Below, piece after piece: positions 26,776 to 58,738 of a DNA stretch of 64,000 nucleotides; the first letter of the stretch is position 1, and the number at the start of each line of letters is the position of its first letter. The notes below the pieces were generated by a model that saw only the letters and a list, made by a program, of their open reading frames with translations, searched no databases and was not told the origin of the DNA. Position numbers and translations under genes: made by a program. Location of the stretch: contig CBDCJO010000002.1 of assembly GCA_965217865.1 (NCBI GenBank), positions 4,512,001-4,576,000 on the forward strand. The letters run 5' to 3'. The DNA is from Candidatus Latescibacterota bacterium. GTDB taxonomy: Bacteria > Latescibacterota > UBA2968 > SICM01.

Positions 26776-27670
26776 TCAGCTAAGATCGTAGATTGCGTCA
26801 AATCGCTTCCCGGTTTCAACCAGGGTTACCGGGACCTGGGCGACCTCCTCGATTTTATCGATTAACCCCTGGACTCTGGGGGTTATTTTCAATTTGTCCC
26901 GAATATCCGGATCGAGATGATCGCAAAAGGTCAATGCGATTTGGGTGGGACCGTTCAACATCACCGCTTCCTCGAGATGATCCCAGGAAATTCCGCTGGA
27001 TTTCTTCCTGCGGCGTCCGGTCCTCACTCCGAACTCCGCGATGTTTCGGGCATCCTGTTCCTCTTCGGATATTTGAAAAGGAAGCGGTCCTCCGCCAACC
27101 CGGGATGGAAGGGCTTTTACGACGAGTATAACCTCCTTGATATATCTCCAATTCAATCCTACGTCGTCGGCCAGGGCGGCTGTGGTACAATTATCAGAAG
27201 TGCTATAGGGATAGTCTCGGGTTAATGCCAGAGAGAGAAACGTCAAACGGAATTCCGCCTGCGCGACGCCCGTGCCGCTTTGCGTCGAGCCGACTTCGTG
27301 CCGCAAGTGGTTATCCAATTGCTCCTCCTTCCTGTGTTTCGGCAGGATGACGGGGCACCGGAAGTCAACCCGGGCGCGTTTTGAGGTTCCGAACTCTTCG
27401 TCAAACTCGGTGATTTCATTCAGGAATATCTCGGGATCCACCGCCACCCCGCTTCCAACCCGAAGTTCCCCACCTGCAAGGATTCCGGCCATCGGGATCT
27501 GGGTGAGTCTTTATCATTCTTTTGGCATCCAGGTACAGGCTATGTCCTGCATTCGTTCCCGTTCCTGCGCGGACACAAATATCGGCTTTATCCCTCTGTG
27601 CCAGATATGACGCTACTTTGCCCTTTCCCGAATCACCCCAGAACGCATCGACAATAATAGTTGCTCCCAC
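26776..27670 (-). pseudogene. purA: Adenylosuccinate synthetase (short, archaeal-type) with a frameshift and an internal deletion
   Basis: GTG 27670 ..FWGDSGKGK..NAGHS; frameshift near 27500; VGSTQSGTG joined directly to LSLALTRDYPYSTS (EGxQG segment absent); SRVGGGP, EFGVRTGRRR. Confidence 0.8.
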
Positions 27671-27775
27671 TGTATCACCTCCATTTGTGAACAGTTTTCT
27701 AAGCCGACCGATAAAATAAACCATTTCTTACATAAGTAAAATTGATTATATTTATTATGTTGATAAGGATCGCTT

Positions 27776-29412: not shown

Positions 29413-30938
29413 CAGCCTGTTGAAAAAGTGCATTTATGCCAAGATGACTGTTGTCTTTCCTTGTGGTTTGGTCCTATGATATATCAGGTTCAAACTGAGA
29501 AGGGAGGACGAGCAAATGGCAATGGGAAAACGAGGACGACAGAGACAGGAAAACCTGTTCATCGCATCGAACACTTTGGTGAAATCTCCGGGTCATCCGT
29601 TCTACGAGAAGCTGAATCAGGTATTGGGGGCGAACGGCTTCGACGAGTTCGTCGAGGGGCTTTGCCAGCGGTATTACGCTCCTCATATGGGTCGCAAGGG
29701 CATTCCGCCCGGGGTTTATTTTCGGATGCTTTTGATTGGGTATTTCGAGGGACTTGATTCGGAACGTGGGATCGAATGGCGTGTATCTGACTCGCTGACG
29801 TTGCGCCGGTTTTTGGGGTATGCCCTTGACGAACAGACCCCGGATCATTCCAGCCTGTCTCGCATCCGGCATCGGCTTCCCTTGGAAGTTCACGAAGCGG
29901 TTTTCAAGTGGATCCTGAGGGTCTTGTGCAAAGCGGGTCTGGTGAAGGGGAAGACGTTGGGCGTGGATGCTACGACACTGGAGGCCAACGCCGCGATGCG
30001 CAGCATTGTACGCCGTGACACGGGTGAAGGCTACCAGGCATTCCTTGAGAATCTGGCCAAGGCCTCGGGCATTGAAACGCCTACCCGCGAGGACTTGTCC
30101 AAGATCGATAAGAAGCGACCGAAGAAGGGATCGAACCAGGACTGGGAGCACCCGCACGACCCGGATGCCAAGATCGCTAAGATGAAGGACGGTCGCACGC
30201 ACATGGCGCACAAGGTGGAGCACGCGGTGGATCTGGACACCAATGCCATTGTGGCAGTGGCGTTGTCGGGAGCAGATGAAGGAGATACCGAGTCGTTGCC
30301 CTGGACGCTGCTCGAGGCGCCGCTCAATCTCAAGCAGGTCGCGAAGGACGAAAAAGCTGCCAAACGTTTGCACAGACAGCGTATACGGGAGGTGGTTGCG
30401 GACAAAGGATATCATAGCAACGATGTATTGACCAGTCTGAAGCAAGGCGGCATCCGGAGTTACATTTCAGAACCGGATCGGGGACGCCGCAAGTGGAACG
30501 GCCGACGAGATGAGCAGGCCGCGGTATATGCGAATCGACGCCGGATCAAGGGAGATCGCGGCAAGGCCTTGCGCCGAAGTCGTGCAGAACGGGTGGAAAG
30601 AACCATCGCTCACACATATGATACCGGTGGCATGCGCAGGTTGCACTTGAGAGACCGCGGCAATATCCTCAAGCGTTTGCTGATCCACATCGGGGGCTGC
30701 AACCTGGCTCTGCTCATGCGCAAAGTGATGGGCGTAGGTACTCCGAAGGCCCTCCAGGACCTGGCCAAGGCCTTGCAGCGTCTACTGCTCGTCCTACAAT
30801 CACGTTTGCTGCCCTCGGTCACCTTTTTAACCTCTTATCAGCGTCTCCTGCTCAATCTCCTTACCTTGATTTATCTGACCCGCACTCCAGGCGTCTTTTC
30901 CGTTTATGTGCGTTGAAAGGTAGTTCTTCAACGGGCTG
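29413..30938 (+). mobile_element. Insertion sequence (IS5/IS1182-like)
   Basis: Terminal IRs cagcctgttgaaaaa (29413-29427) and ttcttcaacgggctg (30924-30938); TTAG target duplication at 29409-29412 and 30939-30942. Confidence 0.9.
29516..30916 (+). CDS. DDE transposase (DUF772-like N-domain)
   Basis: GRKGIPP, PDHSSLSR, VDATTLEANA, VADKGY, RAERVER. Confidence 0.92.
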   Translation: MAMGKRGRQRQENLFIASNTLVKSPGHPFYEKLNQVLGANGFDEFVEGLCQRYYAPHMGRKGIPPGVYFRMLLIGYFEGLDSERGIEWRVSDSLTLRRFLGYALDEQTPDHSSLSRIRHRLPLEVHEAVFKWILRVLCKAGLVKGKTLGVDATTLEANAAMRSIVRRDTGEGYQAFLENLAKASGIETPTREDLSKIDKKRPKKGSNQDWEHPHDPDAKIAKMKDGRTHMAHKVEHAVDLDTNAIVAVALSGADEGDTESLPWTLLEAPLNLKQVAKDEKAAKRLHRQRIREVVADKGYHSNDVLTSLKQGGIRSYISEPDRGRRKWNGRRDEQAAVYANRRRIKGDRGKALRRSRAERVERTIAHTYDTGGMRRLHLRDRGNILKRLLIHIGGCNLALLMRKVMGVGTPKALQDLAKALQRLLLVLQSRLLPSVTFLTSYQRLLLNLLTLIYLTRTPGVFSVYVR

Positions 30939-31352
30939 TTAGGGATGAAAAACTGTGGAACCGAAAAAATACTTCTGAACCAGGAAACCGAACCGGAATC
31001 CTCCCTCATAAGGTTGAACAACTGTGGCGTTGGTCGTCCGAAACTTTAGATTGGGTCGTCTATTGTCCCGGAAAAGGAGACGTGGCAATGGAGCCACTTT
31101 TTCTCACATTTACTTCTAAATCGGTTTTTGCCTTAAATAAAGGCTGTGACAGTGATTACCATCCTTAAAAAATATAATGCAGGAGTGTCTGATCCACAAC
31201 TCAAATTGGGTCGTCAAAATTGGTTCGGAAGAAGGCTTCCCACCAAAGACGGTTTCTGTTGGGCTTGATTTATAACCTATGATTTGCTATCTTTACTGAA
31301 GGGAATTGTAGATCATTACAGTATTGAGCTCAAAATAGCAGGGATTTAAACC

Positions 31353-31481
31353 GTGATCAAAGGCCGCCGGATATTTCGTATTTTCTCGATTTCAATCACA
31401 GTCGACACAAACGGATTCGTGCGTTCTAATCCGAATCCAAATCGAGATAATTCCGGCACCCAACGGCGGGATCGTTTATGA
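31353..31481 (+). CDS. Asn-rich leader peptide 1 (aspS attenuator)
   Basis: GTG 31353 (or 31419): ..GFVRSNPNPNRDNSGTQRRDRL*; AGGGA upstream. Confidence 0.7.
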   Translation: MIKGRRIFRIFSISITVDTNGFVRSNPNPNRDNSGTQRRDRL

Positions 31482-31512
31482 CCTTGAGTCGATAGGTTTC
31501 TTCTAAATCCCA

Positions 31513-31550
31513 ACCCGCCGTTGAGTTCTCAACAGCGGGTTTTGTTTTTG
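31513..31550 (+). terminator. Attenuator terminator 1
   Basis: acccgccgttga-gttc-tcaacagcgggt plus T-run; 5' arm is complementary to 31461-31470 in the leader. Confidence 0.85.
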
Positions 31551-31581
31551 TAAACACCGATATAGAAAGAGTAAAACAGCG

Positions 31582-31716
31582 ATGATCAACAACCTTACAA
31601 GTATCAGCCAAGTCATAATAATGAAGCCCACCGGTTTCAGTGCCCGCCTGAATCCCAATCCTAATTCGAACTTCGATAATTGTGCCATTCGGCGGCGGGC
31701 AGGACCGTGGTTCTGA
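31582..31716 (+). CDS. Asn-rich leader peptide 2 (aspS attenuator)
   Basis: MINNLTSISQVIIMKPTGFSARLNPNPNSNFDNCAIRRRAGPWF*. Confidence 0.72.
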   Translation: MINNLTSISQVIIMKPTGFSARLNPNPNSNFDNCAIRRRAGPWF

Positions 31717-31742
31717 TCAAATCAAAACTTGAGTCCGAATCC

Positions 31743-31782
31743 AGCCCGTCGTTGTTCCGAGCAACGGCGGGCTTTTTGTTTT
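31743..31782 (+). terminator. Attenuator terminator 2
   Basis: agcccgtcgttg..caacggcgggct plus T-run; 5' arm pairs with 31690-31700. Confidence 0.85.
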
Positions 31783-31804
31783 CCACAGATAGGAGGATAA
31801 AACC

Positions 31805-33118
31805 ATGAAACGCACTTTGATCTCTGAACTTCCCGGTAAAACCGGACACGCGGTTACCGTTATGGGATGGGTACATACCATCCGAGACCAGAAACGTATG
31901 GTCTTTCTCATCGTAAGGGACCATACGGGCTGCGTCCAGACGGTGCTTGAGAAGGCGCAAAACCCGGAGCTGGCGGAATCCCTTGCTGGCCTGACCCGCG
32001 AGTCCGTTGTCAGTCTTTCGGGAGAGGTGAGTAAAAATCCGCAGGTCAGGCTCGGCGGTATCGAGATCCGGCTGAGCCATCTCCGGATTGAGAACCTGGC
32101 AGCGTCCCCTCTGCCGATAGATCCTTTTTCATCTTCGCTACCTGGACAGGATCTGCGGCTCGACTGGCGACATCTGGATCTGCGCCGTCCCGAGAATCAG
32201 CACTTCTTCCGAATTCAGACTTCCCTCGAGCAGGCGATGCGTGAATTCTGGGCTACGGAGGGTTTCATTGAGATCCATACACCCAAACTGATGGGCAGCC
32301 CAAGTGAGTCCGGAGCCGAGCTCTTCGAGCTTGCGTATTTCGAAAATCGGGCCTATCTGGCTCAATCGCCCCAGTTCTATAAGCAGATGGCCATCGCGGC
32401 CGGCCTGAACCGGGTCTTTGAGATCGGCCCTGTCTTTCGGGCGGACCCGTCTTTCACCTCACGGCACACAACGGAATTCACGAGCGTTGACGTGGAGATC
32501 GGCTGGATCGAGTCTCACGAGGAGGTGATGGCCTTTGAGGAGCGGTGGTTGTCATATGTCATCGAAGTTCTCCAGGAAAAACACGGAAAGGAGGTCCGCG
32601 ATTTATTTGGCAGGGAGGTTATCGTCCCGGTCGTGCCTTTTCCCCGTATCAGTATGGAAGAGGCGACTCAACTCTTAAGCCGTGAGGGTTATGATGGTTC
32701 GCCGACCGGCGATCTGGACCCGCATGGTGAGCGATTCCTGGGTGAATACTTTCGCCGCGAGCACGGCCACGAATTTGTATTCGTCACGGACTATCCAGCG
32801 GAAGTGCGTCCATTCTATCATATGCGGCACGAGACGGAGCCGAGGCTCACCCGAAGCTACGATCTTCTCTGGATGGGCCTTGAGATAACCACCGGTGCTC
32901 AGCGGGAACACCGTCTGAATCCGTTGATCGCTCAGGCAAGGGAGAAGGGTTTGGGCACGGAGGCCATTCAGTTCTACCTGGATTTTTTCAAATATGGATG
33001 TCCGCCTCACGGGGGCTTCGGGCTGGGCCTGGCGCGGCTCTTAATGATCCTGCTGGACCGTCCCAATATCCGGGAGACGACGTTTCTGCCCCGTACACCC
33101 AACAGGCTTCATCCGTAG
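31805..33118 (+). CDS. aspS: Aspartate--tRNA(Asp/Asn) ligase, short non-discriminating type
   Basis: GWVH..RD OB fold, LAQSPQFYKQM, FRAD..SRH..EF, GAQREH, PPHGGFGLGLAR; 437 aa with no GAD insertion. Confidence 0.9.
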   Translation: MKRTLISELPGKTGHAVTVMGWVHTIRDQKRMVFLIVRDHTGCVQTVLEKAQNPELAESLAGLTRESVVSLSGEVSKNPQVRLGGIEIRLSHLRIENLAASPLPIDPFSSSLPGQDLRLDWRHLDLRRPENQHFFRIQTSLEQAMREFWATEGFIEIHTPKLMGSPSESGAELFELAYFENRAYLAQSPQFYKQMAIAAGLNRVFEIGPVFRADPSFTSRHTTEFTSVDVEIGWIESHEEVMAFEERWLSYVIEVLQEKHGKEVRDLFGREVIVPVVPFPRISMEEATQLLSREGYDGSPTGDLDPHGERFLGEYFRREHGHEFVFVTDYPAEVRPFYHMRHETEPRLTRSYDLLWMGLEITTGAQREHRLNPLIAQAREKGLGTEAIQFYLDFFKYGCPPHGGFGLGLARLLMILLDRPNIRETTFLPRTPNRLHP

Positions 33119-55530: not shown

Positions 55531-56460
55531 ATGGTAAAGGAATTTCATCCCGACACACAAAAGAAATGTGAGTTTTGTGGTGAGGTTATTCCAAAGGTAC
55601 GTTCGATGTCCGTCCGGGACGTGCGCACCTGTGTAAAATGCCAGAAAAAGCTGGAGAAAAACCCATGGGAACTGAAGGATCCGAATCATAGGGAGGTTCA
55701 AAAGCAACAAGATGACGCGGACTTACCCAATTCCTTAGAGCTGCAAGACGATCATGTGAAGGTGGGGGGGTGGTCAAACAGCCTCCTGGAAATGACCTCA
55801 AGGGGGGTCGAACTCAGAACACTTATGGATTCAGGTAAAGTGCGGGACGCGCGCACTTTCGTTCAGCACTTAACTGTTCCGGCGCAAGCTGCACTGGTTT
55901 CTCTGGATCAAAATCCCGAGGAGGTCCTTTCTGTCACCGGAATGACAGATTCAGAACTACCGGCCTACTGTCCGCAGGTTGTGGATTTACTCCCGACGGA
56001 GCTTTTGGCGGACCTGGTTGCCCCCCACACAGAGTACCTGAGGTTCAACATAGAAGTCCTAAAGGCGATGTCACCCAAAACTTTTCGGCGGGTAATGCTG
56101 GAGACCCTGGATCCAATCGATAACCTGGAATATCGCGCCCAAGTGTCCTGGGAGTGGTTAGAGGCATTGGTGGCGATCGATGATCCTAATAAGATCGCAG
56201 AGCTTGTGGGGGACGTCGAAGTGGAGTTGCTTGAAGATGCCATCATTACTCGTTTTGAATATCTTGATATGCACCAAATCGTTGGGGGGGATGTCCCGCT
56301 TTTCCGTATCTTTTCGGAATCCGGAAATTTATCTGTCGATCCAGGGGACTTTTTTAAAGAGCCAAAAACAGCTAAAGTGATCAAAGCCCTTCACGAAGCG
56401 GTACCGGATCTTTTGAACGAAGTCGTACGAGGGGCTTGGGAACGTGCAGGAGAGGTTTAG
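55531..56460 (+). CDS. Hypothetical protein with an N-terminal DksA/TraR-type C4 zinc finger
   Basis: CEFCGEVIPKVR..RTCVKCQ; AGGAGG RBS. Confidence 0.7.
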   Translation: MVKEFHPDTQKKCEFCGEVIPKVRSMSVRDVRTCVKCQKKLEKNPWELKDPNHREVQKQQDDADLPNSLELQDDHVKVGGWSNSLLEMTSRGVELRTLMDSGKVRDARTFVQHLTVPAQAALVSLDQNPEEVLSVTGMTDSELPAYCPQVVDLLPTELLADLVAPHTEYLRFNIEVLKAMSPKTFRRVMLETLDPIDNLEYRAQVSWEWLEALVAIDDPNKIAELVGDVEVELLEDAIITRFEYLDMHQIVGGDVPLFRIFSESGNLSVDPGDFFKEPKTAKVIKALHEAVPDLLNEVVRGAWERAGEV

Positions 56461-58478
56461 GATGGTATGCCGTTAATCGGCACCTGGCTGGGGTGTTTTT
56501 TGAAGAAGTCCTTTCGAGGCTCAAGGACTTTAAGACGATGCTCTGCGGGGTTCTCCATAAAAGCATATATGGGTTCAAAAATGCGATCCCAACTCCAGAA
56601 CTCCTCTCCGAGCCTCATATACTCACGAACCATTTCAGTCCCTTCGGGGACGACCGGATGCATAAGAACCGTAGCCACCCGGACCATATGGAAAGCGTCG
56701 ATCAAGGATCGTCTCCGTAAGGCGGAGTCACAATCGTCATTATATGGCTTTCGTGCGCTCCACCGATGATTGATTTCTCTTATATATGCGCCAGCTATGG
56801 TTATAGCCTGGTGAAACTCATGTTTATACATGGCTTCTTCAAATTCCAGAATCGTTGTTTTCGCTTGCGATAAGATTTCATCACTAATTTCGCCTACCGG
56901 CACTTTTCCATCAAAGAATTTCTGAGCCGTGTAAAAGCAGGATCGAACAGCACGATTGAAAGCGTTGCTTAAAAGATTCCCTTCTTTTAAGACAGGGTCG
57001 CTCTCCTTTTCCCCCGCGTTCGGGTTCAATGGTCTTGGACGAAAACTCATGCTTCGCATTCCGAGTCCCAGACTCAGGAAATGAGCCCTCAGTTGATCCA
57101 CTGTATAGAAGTTGAGGAGGTCTCTTGCCATAGGCGGTTTTAATGCACCGCTGCTGCTGGCTTTTTTGTCGAGGAAAAGAAGGTGTCGATTGGCGACGAG
57201 GTGCGGGATTTGAATTTGGCCCTCGGGAGGGTCTATGGCCGGATGTTTCCCCTGCATTCCTATGAACATTGCAGCCTCGGGGAGGCTATAAAAAAAGACA
57301 TTGTCTTCTCCGATAAACTGGTAAACCTTTGAGTTTTTTGAGCACCACCAATCCCTCCAGTCTTTCTTATTCCCCCCTTGATGTTCTAAATATGCCGCGG
57401 TAAATGGTATTGGCGCCCAGAGCGATTCCGGCCATACCCAGAAAGTCAATCCGGCAAGTCCTTCCAATTCCGGAGCTGGTAAACCCCATTCCAGATTCCC
57501 GGTGAGCCGAAAGGGCACGAGTGTTTTGCCTGTTCGGTACATCACGGAATGCTCGCTTAAAATCGATCTCGCTTTTTCCTTATCTTCGAGGCGGTTAAAA
57601 ACCAATCGAACCGACCTGGCTCTTCCTTCCACCCGGTTGTGGGTGGGGAGTTGATGAACGACCGAGTTCAATGTCTCCACTTGATCTCGTGTCACGTGGA
57701 TAATGGGCGGCTCAAAGTGTTCCTGTATATTTCTGATGATGAAATCCCGCCATTCTCCGAATTCTCTCAAACTATTCAACCATGATTCCAATAGGGTCCG
57801 AAACTCCGGAAGTCTCAGATACCAGTTCGTAACTCCTCGCGTGTGCGGTCTGTCCCCCGTAAGGGTGCTTTTGGGGTCGATAAGGTCTTCCGGTTCGAAT
57901 TGGTGGCCCAGAGAACATTCATCGGCATAAGCCTTTTCAGATCGACATCCTTCTATCGGACAGAGGCCTTGCACTTGACGACCGGTCAAAAACGTTTTCG
58001 CTTTAATATCATAGAACTGAGGCGTGGTTCGCTTTTCCAAATGCCCATTGGCGTGGAGGGTTTCAATCAATAAGGCCCCGAACTCTCGATGAATATCCGC
58101 GAAACGATCGAAACCGGAGGCCGCAAAAAGATTTAAACTGACGTTGTACGCTTCCAGTGTTTCGGTTTGACGCTTGTGGTTGGATCGAACAAAGTCTTCG
58201 AGGCTCCCTTCAAATTCGCCCTGAGCGGTCAACTCCCGGTGTTCTTCGACGATGGGGGAACCGTAACAATCAGTGCCCGAAATAAAAATGACGTTCTCCC
58301 CCCCGATGCGATCACGGAGAAATCTGGCAAATGCGTCGGCGTGCACAAACAGGCCGCCGATGTGTCCAAAATGAAGGTCCTTGTTCCCATAAGGCATCCC
58401 GCAGGTGACAATTGCCCGCTCTGGAAAATTTGGCCTCCCCCGATCTCGAATATCTGACCTTTCTTTTTTTTCCTTCAT
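56457..58478 (-). CDS. Divergent methionyl-tRNA-synthetase-fold class I ligase, specificity uncertain
   Basis: MPYGN..HFGH (HIGH), GTDCYG, Zn knuckle CPIEGC..DECSLGH, WG.P.P, WVW, KASSS (KMSKS), helical anticodon domain; AAGGAG RBS. Confidence 0.85.
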   Translation of the reverse strand: MKEKKERSDIRDRGRPNFPERAIVTCGMPYGNKDLHFGHIGGLFVHADAFARFLRDRIGGENVIFISGTDCYGSPIVEEHRELTAQGEFEGSLEDFVRSNHKRQTETLEAYNVSLNLFAASGFDRFADIHREFGALLIETLHANGHLEKRTTPQFYDIKAKTFLTGRQVQGLCPIEGCRSEKAYADECSLGHQFEPEDLIDPKSTLTGDRPHTRGVTNWYLRLPEFRTLLESWLNSLREFGEWRDFIIRNIQEHFEPPIIHVTRDQVETLNSVVHQLPTHNRVEGRARSVRLVFNRLEDKEKARSILSEHSVMYRTGKTLVPFRLTGNLEWGLPAPELEGLAGLTFWVWPESLWAPIPFTAAYLEHQGGNKKDWRDWWCSKNSKVYQFIGEDNVFFYSLPEAAMFIGMQGKHPAIDPPEGQIQIPHLVANRHLLFLDKKASSSGALKPPMARDLLNFYTVDQLRAHFLSLGLGMRSMSFRPRPLNPNAGEKESDPVLKEGNLLSNAFNRAVRSCFYTAQKFFDGKVPVGEISDEILSQAKTTILEFEEAMYKHEFHQAITIAGAYIREINHRWSARKPYNDDCDSALRRRSLIDAFHMVRVATVLMHPVVPEGTEMVREYMRLGEEFWSWDRIFEPIYAFMENPAEHRLKVLEPRKDFFKKHPSQVPINGIPS

Positions 58479-58522
58479 AAATATCACTCTCCTTAAATCA
58501 AGCTCTCTTCCACTGTGTTTAG

Positions 58523-58600: not shown

Positions 58601-58738
58601 TCATAAAATCTCCCGCCACGGAATCCCTTTTTGGACCTGTTGCTGCTGGAACTGGATACCTTCAAAGAACACCCCAGGTATCCATTTGGTTAACATTGCG
58701 CTTTCAGGAATCGATGATCCGTAGCGGTGAACCGACAT
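58601..58738 (-). CDS. Gln-rich leader peptide
   Basis: MSVHRYGSSIPESAMLTKWIPGVFFEGIQFQQQQVQKGIPWREIL* (alternative ATG 58696); 6 Gln in 8 codons. Confidence 0.72.
   Translation of the reverse strand: MSVHRYGSSIPESAMLTKWIPGVFFEGIQFQQQQVQKGIPWREIL

Follow-up and report, generated by a model that had tools for sequence, protein, structure and literature searches.

Tandem asparagine/aspartate leader-peptide attenuators probably control an extra non-discriminating aspartyl-tRNA synthetase gene in Latescibacterota

Classical transcription attenuation is represented among the aminoacyl-tRNA synthetase genes by pheST, and attenuators before synthetase genes were reportedly surveyed by comparative genomics by the Lyubetsky group in 2010. 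Tandem T-boxes are among the switches that read the same signal in series. Same-ligand tandem riboswitches (e.g. tandem TPP) are described in excerpts of PMC9481103 as giving steeper responses. In the trp attenuator, basal read-through is set by release at the stop codon (excerpts of PMC1183508), and the paired elements mgtM and mgtP sense different signals (ATP and Pro-tRNA), are not described as homologues and work without intrinsic terminators in the excerpts of PMC3641672. With respect to arrest peptides, Arg-Ala-Gly-Pro (RAGP) is reported to arrest the ribosome in SecM and in Bacillus subtilis YwcI while Gly occupies the P site, but stalling was not seen with most of the natural RAPP-like sequences assayed (excerpts of PMC10987492); RAGP is also a weaker core than RAPP or RGPP (excerpts of PMC12992588). 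The terms 'synthetase', 'attenuat' and 'terminator' are absent from the available main-text passages of PMC12992588, as are asparagine and aspartate terms from those of PMC4833913 and PMC2965389. Our literature search, in which subscription journals were poorly covered and supplements lay outside, found no description of Asn/Asp or of same-signal tandem leader-peptide attenuators.

The window analysed here is a 64,000-nucleotide stretch of a Candidatus Latescibacterota genome (G000; contig CBDCJO010000002.1, positions 4,512,001 to 4,576,000). Upstream of an extra non-discriminating AspRS (ND-AspRS) gene it contains what is probably a tandem leader-peptide attenuation system for Asn/Asp, with two homologous modules in series (Table 1). 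The first-pass annotation of the window had proposed two such modules, each with a leader reading frame (uORF), an antiterminator strand made of Arg codons and a U-tailed terminator, and all of these parts are confirmed where it had placed them. A contig of the public run X2 covers positions 31109-32069 with zero differences, and an assembly artefact is therefore excluded.

Table 1. Features of the tandem leader and the downstream gene (positions in the window)
Feature	Position	Strand	Basis
Promoter-like TTGATT, 17 nt, TATCTT; predicted to serve both modules as their one promoter	31265-31293	+	sequence
Shine-Dalgarno-like AGGGA, 8 nt 5' of uORF1 start	31340-31344	+	sequence
uORF1, module 1 leader peptide, 42 aa, GTG start, without RAGP	31353-31481	+	ORF; counterparts in G036 and G077
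Module 1 control codons N P N P N R D N, last Asn = codon 33	31428-31451	+	
Module 1 antiterminator strand (segment 2)	31461-31470	+	pairs with 31514-31523
Terminator 1, intrinsic (hairpin + U tract)	31512-31550	+	-17.6 kcal/mol, z -3.9; kept in G036 and G077
Weak Shine-Dalgarno-like purine run for uORF2	31564-31571	+	sequence
uORF2, module 2 leader peptide, 44 aa, ATG start	31582-31716	+	ORF
Module 2 predicted segment 1, candidate pause/anti-antiterminator hairpin, pairs with segment 2	31641-31648	+	minimum-energy fold
Module 2 control codons N P N P N S N F D N, last Asn = codon 33	31651-31680	+	
Module 2 antiterminator strand (segment 2), within Arg-Arg-Arg-Ala codons	31690-31700	+	pairs with 31744-31754
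Arg-Ala-Gly-Pro codons, candidate SecM-type arrest motif	31696-31707	+	
Terminator 2, intrinsic, U-tailed	31743-31782	+	-24.2 kcal/mol, z -4.7
Shine-Dalgarno AGGAGG of the ND-AspRS gene	31791-31796	+	sequence
Extra archaeal-type non-discriminating AspRS gene, 437 aa	31805-33118	+	NCBIfam above cut-off

The promoter-like site at the head of the leader matches the consensus at 8 of 12 positions, which is under the scan threshold; TTGACT-17-TATCTT precedes module 1 in the related genome G036, and TTGACG-17-TATCTT is found at the g10 tandem leaders described below. The Shine-Dalgarno position of uORF1 holds AGGAG in both G036 and G077, and that of uORF2, weak in this genome, holds a strong AAGGAG in G077. 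The uORF1 peptide carries ...SNPNPNRDNSGTQRRDRL and the uORF2 peptide carries ...LNPNPNSNFDNCAIRRRAGPWF. Given an Asn frequency of 0.030 in the genome, four Asn among eight codons have p ~5e-5 and five among ten have p ~5e-6, each calculated per window of codons. The duplex 31461-31470/31514-31523 of module 1, formed with the 5' arm of terminator 1, has an energy of -22.3 kcal/mol, and in module 2 the 5' arm of terminator 2 (31744-31754) is complementary to 31690-31700. None of 200 shuffles was as good as either terminator hairpin, while the antiterminator folds stand out less clearly from shuffles (z = -2.3 and 4/200 for module 1; z = -1.7 and 9/200 for module 2); the entire leader has a folding z of -4.6. 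The pairing of segment 1 with segment 2 in module 2 is not better than shuffles (z = -0.6), and similar pairing is predicted in several relatives. A genome-wide scan reduced 2222 terminator-like hairpins to 107 candidate rows, and the combination of a strong hairpin with a complementary strand of 10-11 nt was found at few places, among them both modules and a Gln leader in the same window. The gap between terminator 1 and uORF2 is only ~30 nt. A weak promoter-like match at 31594-31622, inside uORF2, is unconserved, and three such matches were found where 1.5 are expected by chance.

The downstream gene product is identified as aspartate--tRNA(Asn) ligase by NCBIfam (PRK05159, 505 > 353; TIGR00458, 422 > 368), and its nearest named homologue, with 74% identity, belongs to a Ca. 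Latescibacterota genome. At E <= 1e-75 the gene is present in 33 of the 168 genomes of the phylum, 27 of them in this class. The same genome, which is 96% complete, also encodes AsnRS, bacterial AspRS, GatA, GatB, GlnRS and GluRS, so that the ND-AspRS gene is a spare synthetase here. GatA and GatB, the two GatCAB subunits covered by the search, lie above their family cut-offs. AsnA has no match in this genome, but five AsnB-family genes are present, and Asn synthesis therefore need not rely on the ND-AspRS. A T-box (RF00230) is ruled out as the regulator: no Rfam family, T-box included, matches in the window or at 20 aspS-family loci, and the same search does detect a T-box at the Bacillota locus L170. 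An IS1182-like transposase (29516-30916, plus strand), below its family cut-off, lies ~330 nt 5' of the promoter-like site; the element has more copies in the genome, its end forms a junction in public contigs, and it has no evident part in attenuation. Further upstream, an adenylosuccinate-synthetase-like gene (26776-27724, minus strand) is split into two frames (27416-27724 and 26776-27492) by a frameshift or a sequencing error.

Our survey of relatives took in the DNA preceding the gene at every one of the 27 class loci and at five of the six loci outside the class. An Asn/Asp-rich uORF followed by a terminator is found at 26 of the 27 class loci, as a single leader in 21 and as a double one in five (G000, G036, G077, G040 and G100), and at none of the five out-of-class loci. 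G001 has no adjacent leader; its gene closes an operon whose head, 2.6 kb away, bears a related leader with other codons. The two g18 doubles (G040 and G100) are weaker, since their module 1 is scored at 10.3 bits (E = 0.84) or not matched by R1, a covariance model built from module-2 leaders only, and the first hairpin of G100 has merely -9.9 kcal/mol. R1 also gave no match at 18 AsnRS-like, five out-of-class and 79 other-phyla aspS-family loci, and by eye no leader is seen above asnS, bacterial aspS, gltX or glnS of this genome. An exact degenerate pattern had two matches in metagenome contigs, one being a true single leader (L139) and the other a chance match. Short NNN leader peptides occur before the same ND-AspRS gene in Pleomorphomonas and Agrobacterium records (L123 and L133); these alphaproteobacterial leaders have a hairpin without clear U tract and are unmatched by R1. 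Intact module-2 leaders also stand before a frameshifted aspS copy in G081 and G096 (L140 and L186), and in G016 (L143) before no long ORF within 500 nt.

The control codons were compared in 13 representatives (genus g4 reduced to three, g18 excluded), numbering from the Pro/Ala that precedes Ile as codon 0. Codon -5 is Asn in 12 of them and codons -4 and -3 are Asp/Asn in 11 each, while the Ile (13/13) and Pro (12/13) just 5' of RAGP are conserved with synonymous change. Interleaved Pro codons characterise the G000/G077 clade; genus g4 reads NNNDDNN. The earlier idea that the interleaved Pro codons tune pausing finds no echo in the relatives, where most single-module leaders are NNNDDNN-like and lack such Pro codons. 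In genera g13 and g21 (L046, L047, L049 and L050) codons for His and Tyr stand among those for Asn and Asp in the control regions, and every one of the four kinds is NAY. Such codons are read by queuosine-bearing tRNAs, and the mixture may mean either that neighbouring codons have drifted into one another or that the leaders respond to tRNA modification.

The RNA helices of the leader are conserved together with these codons. In 14 module-2 leaders, 94.8% of cells in the antiterminator helix and 96.8% in the terminator helix are paired, with two-sided changes at 3/11 and 5/11 pairs, respectively, and slid controls pair in 25-60% compared with 95-97% for the true helices. The covariation score was matched by 1/500 shuffles for the antiterminator and 0/500 for the terminator, in a test that leaves kinship uncorrected and has few rows (14). 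For module 1 there are three rows, and hence the exclusivity of its antiterminator and terminator is indicated by conservation alone. We also modelled the ribosome with one fixed footprint length (RNA free from the base 13 nt beyond the A site) and equilibrium folding. With the A site on the control codons, the predicted antiterminator pairing is 0.87-1.0 in module 1 and 0.88-0.99 in module 2 (codons 26-33), and it falls to 0 from codon 35 or 38, respectively; the last Asn, codon 33 in both uORFs, marks the edge of the modelled sensing window. The proposal of Asn/Asp attenuators before the ND-AspRS gene, with uORF conservation and covariation to be expected upstream of aspS in relatives, is supported (26/27 class loci; covarying helices in 14 leaders; codon positions that fit the footprint model). 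Judged by its sequence, the locus has the leader ORF with ribosome-binding site, matching control codons, mutually exclusive hairpins and suitable codon placement of a ribosome-mediated transcription attenuator, while its pause hairpin (segment 1 with segment 2) is a candidate in module 2.

In the mechanism that we propose, a shortage of Asn-tRNA, and of Asp-tRNA through the conserved Asp codons, would open both gates. When the ribosome stalls at an Asn or Asp codon, as far along as codon 33, it would leave segment 2 free to capture the 5' arm of the terminator, giving read-through, while a ribosome beyond codon 34-35 would cover segment 2 and let the terminator form. Because the transcript must pass each gate, read-through would approximate the product of the two, and doubling would give lower basal expression and a steeper response; on this analysis, the two modules would sharpen the response. 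Doubling is nevertheless dispensable, since 21 of the 26 genomes manage with a single module. The RAGP of module 2 would slow or hold the ribosome on segment 2 and so remove the leak from early stop-codon release. The upstream footprint of a ribosome is roughly 12 nt, from which we infer that a ribosome with Gly41 in its P site would cover segment 2, and since stop-codon release causes the basal read-through of trp, a hold at RAGP would tighten repression. The induced enzyme would supply Asp-tRNA(Asn) to GatCAB, an established pathway, and would also charge tRNA(Asp), its specificity being suggested by the family match.

RAGP ends 24 of the 26 gene-proximal leaders, and the g18 pair has WRPP and RRHP in its place, with Pro kept. 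The RAGP leaders make use of each of the four Ala codons and each of the four Gly codons. Parsimony reconstruction on 15 leaders along the quick-tree topology gave 13 changes in the RAGP codons, all 13 at third positions, compared with 3, 5 and 5 across the three positions of the codon that follows. Pairwise codon differences in A-G-P amount to 122 synonymous and 0 non-synonymous, and those in the next three codons to 15 and 191. According to these substitutions, RAGP is conserved as a peptide. For its Pro, 12 of 13 leaders use CCG; ARAGORN reports two tRNA-Pro(CGG) genes in this genome (G000:C2:3367250 and C2:5240534). The stop codon follows the Pro of RAGP after 1-4 codons or is absent before the terminator (G036), and an offset of 9 nt between segment 2 and the stop was found in 13/34 other leaders and in 0/12 RAGP leaders by a noisy automated measure. 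The pattern I-x-x-R-A-G-P matched in 76 of the 168 genomes of the phylum, and 20 matches away from known loci comprise two Asn/Asp leaders (G081 and G016) and 18 non-leaders; among these 20 loci, no RAGP leader was found before other genes. The GG of the Gly codon is common in related Pro-less leaders (RDGA, RDGS and RDGL) and often pairs locally, so part of the constraint on RAGP may act on RNA. On balance, the chances that the RAGP of module 2 is a functional ribosome arrest seem about even.

Module 1 is likely to be a tandem duplicate of module 2 that arose in the ancestor of the G000, G036 and G077 gene clade. R1 matches module 1 at full length in G077 (44.7 bits), G000 (40.9 bits) and G036 (25.5 bits), and it finds partial matches in a Met leader (25.5 bits) and the Gln leader (22.5 bits) of this genome. 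The module-1 cores of G000 and G077 share 31-33 of 49 nt with module 2 of the same two genomes, as against 15-28 with the other 15, while the core of G036 shows no preference for module 2 of its own clade (26-28 versus up to 29 elsewhere). In a quick IQ-TREE tree, in which some distant rows are probably AsnRS, the ND-AspRS genes of the three genomes form one clade (SH-aLRT 99) apart from g18. These genes are just 69-74% identical, and their genomes belong to two families; nevertheless, all three genomes have retained the Shine-Dalgarno sequence, open frame, Asn codons, segment 2 and near-invariant terminator of module 1. Duplication with retention fits: the modules are homologous, kept in three genomes, ~30 nt apart and placed behind one upstream promoter-like site. 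The suggestion that module 1 is left over from a deleted gene is not borne out, given its homology with module 2 and its intact state in G036 and G077.

Leaders of the same design are widespread in the class, as R1 matched 74 of 132 class genomes. We inspected 40 further loci around the best R1 matches outside the already known loci, and in most of them the uORF codons fit the next gene; a few are without clear uORF or match. For instance, Ile/Leu/Val codons precede ilvB, Lys/Thr/Asn/Asp codons asd, Lys codons lysS or a lysS-like gene, Thr codons thrS, Trp codons trpS and Asn/Asp codons a bacterial-type aspS copy. Mixed Val/Leu/Asn codons stand before valS and Met codons before a second metG. 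That control codons follow the function of the gene throughout the lineage had been anticipated, and these pairs (ilvB, valS, asd, lysS, trpS, thrS and the second metG) strengthen that notion. The second metG copy (G000:C2:4200765-4202198, minus strand; L031) has a Met-codon leader peptide (MGMSM) and a terminator. Leaders of this design also stand before ABC-transporter ATPase genes and a GNAT-like gene (L178 in G001, L192 in G112, L195 in G111 and L179 at G000:C2:4924993-4925116), and the G001 operon ends with the ND-aspS gene.

Moreover, tandem leaders occur before the bacterial-type aspS copy at 11 g10 loci and in G160; tandem Asn/Asp leaders are thus found before two AspRS types. The g10 tandems were recognised by two terminators ~170 nt apart, with the gene seen in 10 and both uORFs read in four (L182-L184, L193, L196, L202, L203, L209, L211, L213 and L215; L217 is G160). 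Their first uORF may be leaderless, as its start lies ~8 nt behind a promoter-like -10 box. Other tandems precede ilvB (G001 and G002), asd (G125) and a lysS-like gene (G114). Those at ilvB (L181 in G001 and L180 in G002) are clearly duplicated Ile/Leu/Val leaders, in which module 1 ends with RDGA-stop and module 2 with REGP-stop; the asd tandem (L191) consists of Lys/Thr/Asn leaders and the lysS-like one (L190) of Lys/Asn leaders. In four of the five tandem systems the second module ends with Pro. A wider reading, advanced here tentatively and with somewhat less than an even chance of being right, is that stacked same-signal attenuators form a recurrent steep switch in Latescibacterota (at least five genes), to which the last aspS module adds an RAGP clamp whose arrest means OFF. 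If true, this would represent a hybrid of starvation attenuation and SecM-type arrest, and a ribosome-based counterpart of pseudo-cooperative tandem riboswitches.

The competing accounts differ in what they ascribe to RAGP and to module 1. Both modules could be plain classical attenuators whose RAGP causes no arrest and is fixed by RNA needs, namely segment 2 pairing and a local GGNCC hairpin, together with an ancestral Pro-before-stop ending; this account departs from our best explanation in the role of RAGP only, and it falls just short of an even chance. Consistent with it, the Arg and Ala codons lie within segment 2, where an Arg-to-Gln change improves pairing, small local GGNCC helices are seen in several leaders, and the endings of related leaders, in matching register, are REGP-stop, WDGP-stop, RERP-stop or RDGA-stop; the prevailing CCG codon and the lack of RAGP in both g18 leaders point in the same direction. 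However, all Ala and Gly codons are used, and the 13 codon changes proceeded without any first- or second-position step though the pairing partners vary. The drift or loss of the stop codon behind the Pro, and the 9-nt offset missing from the RAGP leaders by the same noisy measure, likewise argue against this account.

That module 2 alone regulates, with module 1 a neutral or decaying duplicate or a lost-gene leftover bypassed by leak or an internal promoter, seems unlikely. Single leaders do prevail, terminator 1 is weaker than terminator 2 and a promoter-like match lies in between, but that match is within chance and unconserved inside uORF2, the parts of module 1 are preserved across considerable divergence of the genes, and tandems recur before four other genes. 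Similarly improbable is that the modules read different signals (e.g. Asn-tRNA in module 1 and Asp-tRNA, Pro/EF-P status or general elongation rate in module 2) and form an AND gate like mgtM/mgtP. Module 2 of G036 does hold more Asp, His and Pro (3 N, 3 D, 4 P), the g13/g21 leaders often contain His codons and RAGP is confined to module 2; against this, both modules are dominated by Asn in G000 (N4 D1; N5 D1) and G077 (N4 D1; N6 D2), and in each tandem at ilvB, asd and g10 aspS the codon type of one module returns in the other. Our preferred reading remains two homologous gates for the same Asn/Asp signal.

The first-pass annotation had compared the locus with a Gln attenuator at 58.6 kb as an internal control. 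That leader is real and shares the design (window 58601-58738, minus strand), but it is no simple control, because its gene (56457-58487, minus strand) encodes a divergent protein of MetRS fold that scores under every metG cut-off, and the true glnS sits elsewhere in the genome. The protein has KASSS in place of KMSKS and is one of three MetRS-family proteins encoded in the genome. The Gln leader is shared by one of three class orthologues (G097, L162), and a T-box with CAG at the specifier position precedes one of five Bacillota orthologues scanned (L170:1033-1319). Homologues had no match in sets of 5 and 25 Bacillota genomes, matches in larger sets were 2/301 and 5/31, and the family as a whole has over 5000 matches. 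These leaders suggest that the MetRS-fold family may be a Gln-tRNA enzyme; since the gene is not glnS, the Gln leader supports Gln control of this family and not control of a known enzyme. In this way leaders can decode gene function, the design pointing to glutamine for the MetRS-fold enzyme of the window.

With this locus, classical attenuation would gain Asn/Asp as a signal and would reach into an uncultured phylum. Natural single and double forms of one attenuator make sensitivity and basal leak directly testable, and the leaders suggest a new use of the RAGP arrest motif outside protein export. As in the E. coli trp and Salmonella his attenuators, cognate control codons lie just 5' of segment 2, with an overlapping antiterminator and a competing terminator. 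In contrast to classical attenuators, the signal is Asn/Asp, two modules stand in series, the leaders have 42-44 aa and the target is a spare ND-AspRS; furthermore, module 2 ends in an RAGP that is conserved as a peptide, and in some cases its frame meets no stop codon ahead of the terminator. Salmonella mgtCBR resembles the locus in having two uORF-operated attenuators in one leader, mgtM and mgtP (excerpts of PMC3641672), but the modules described here are homologous, rich in the same amino acids and each equipped with an intrinsic terminator. The closest parallel in logic is with pseudo-cooperative tandem riboswitches, in which independent terminator switches for the same signal in series are expected to steepen the dose-response (excerpts of PMC9481103); unlike these and tandem T-boxes, the sensor here would be a translating ribosome without aptamer, in line with the lack of any Rfam match. 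Finally, a C-terminal R-A-G-P conserved at the peptide level within a uORF recalls SecM, YwcI and RAPP-like arrest peptides (excerpts of PMC10987492 and PMC12992588), although, unlike in SecM and YwcI, the region upstream is Asn/Asp-rich with no evident localisation signal, the motif overlaps the antiterminator and the predicted effect of an arrest would be OFF.
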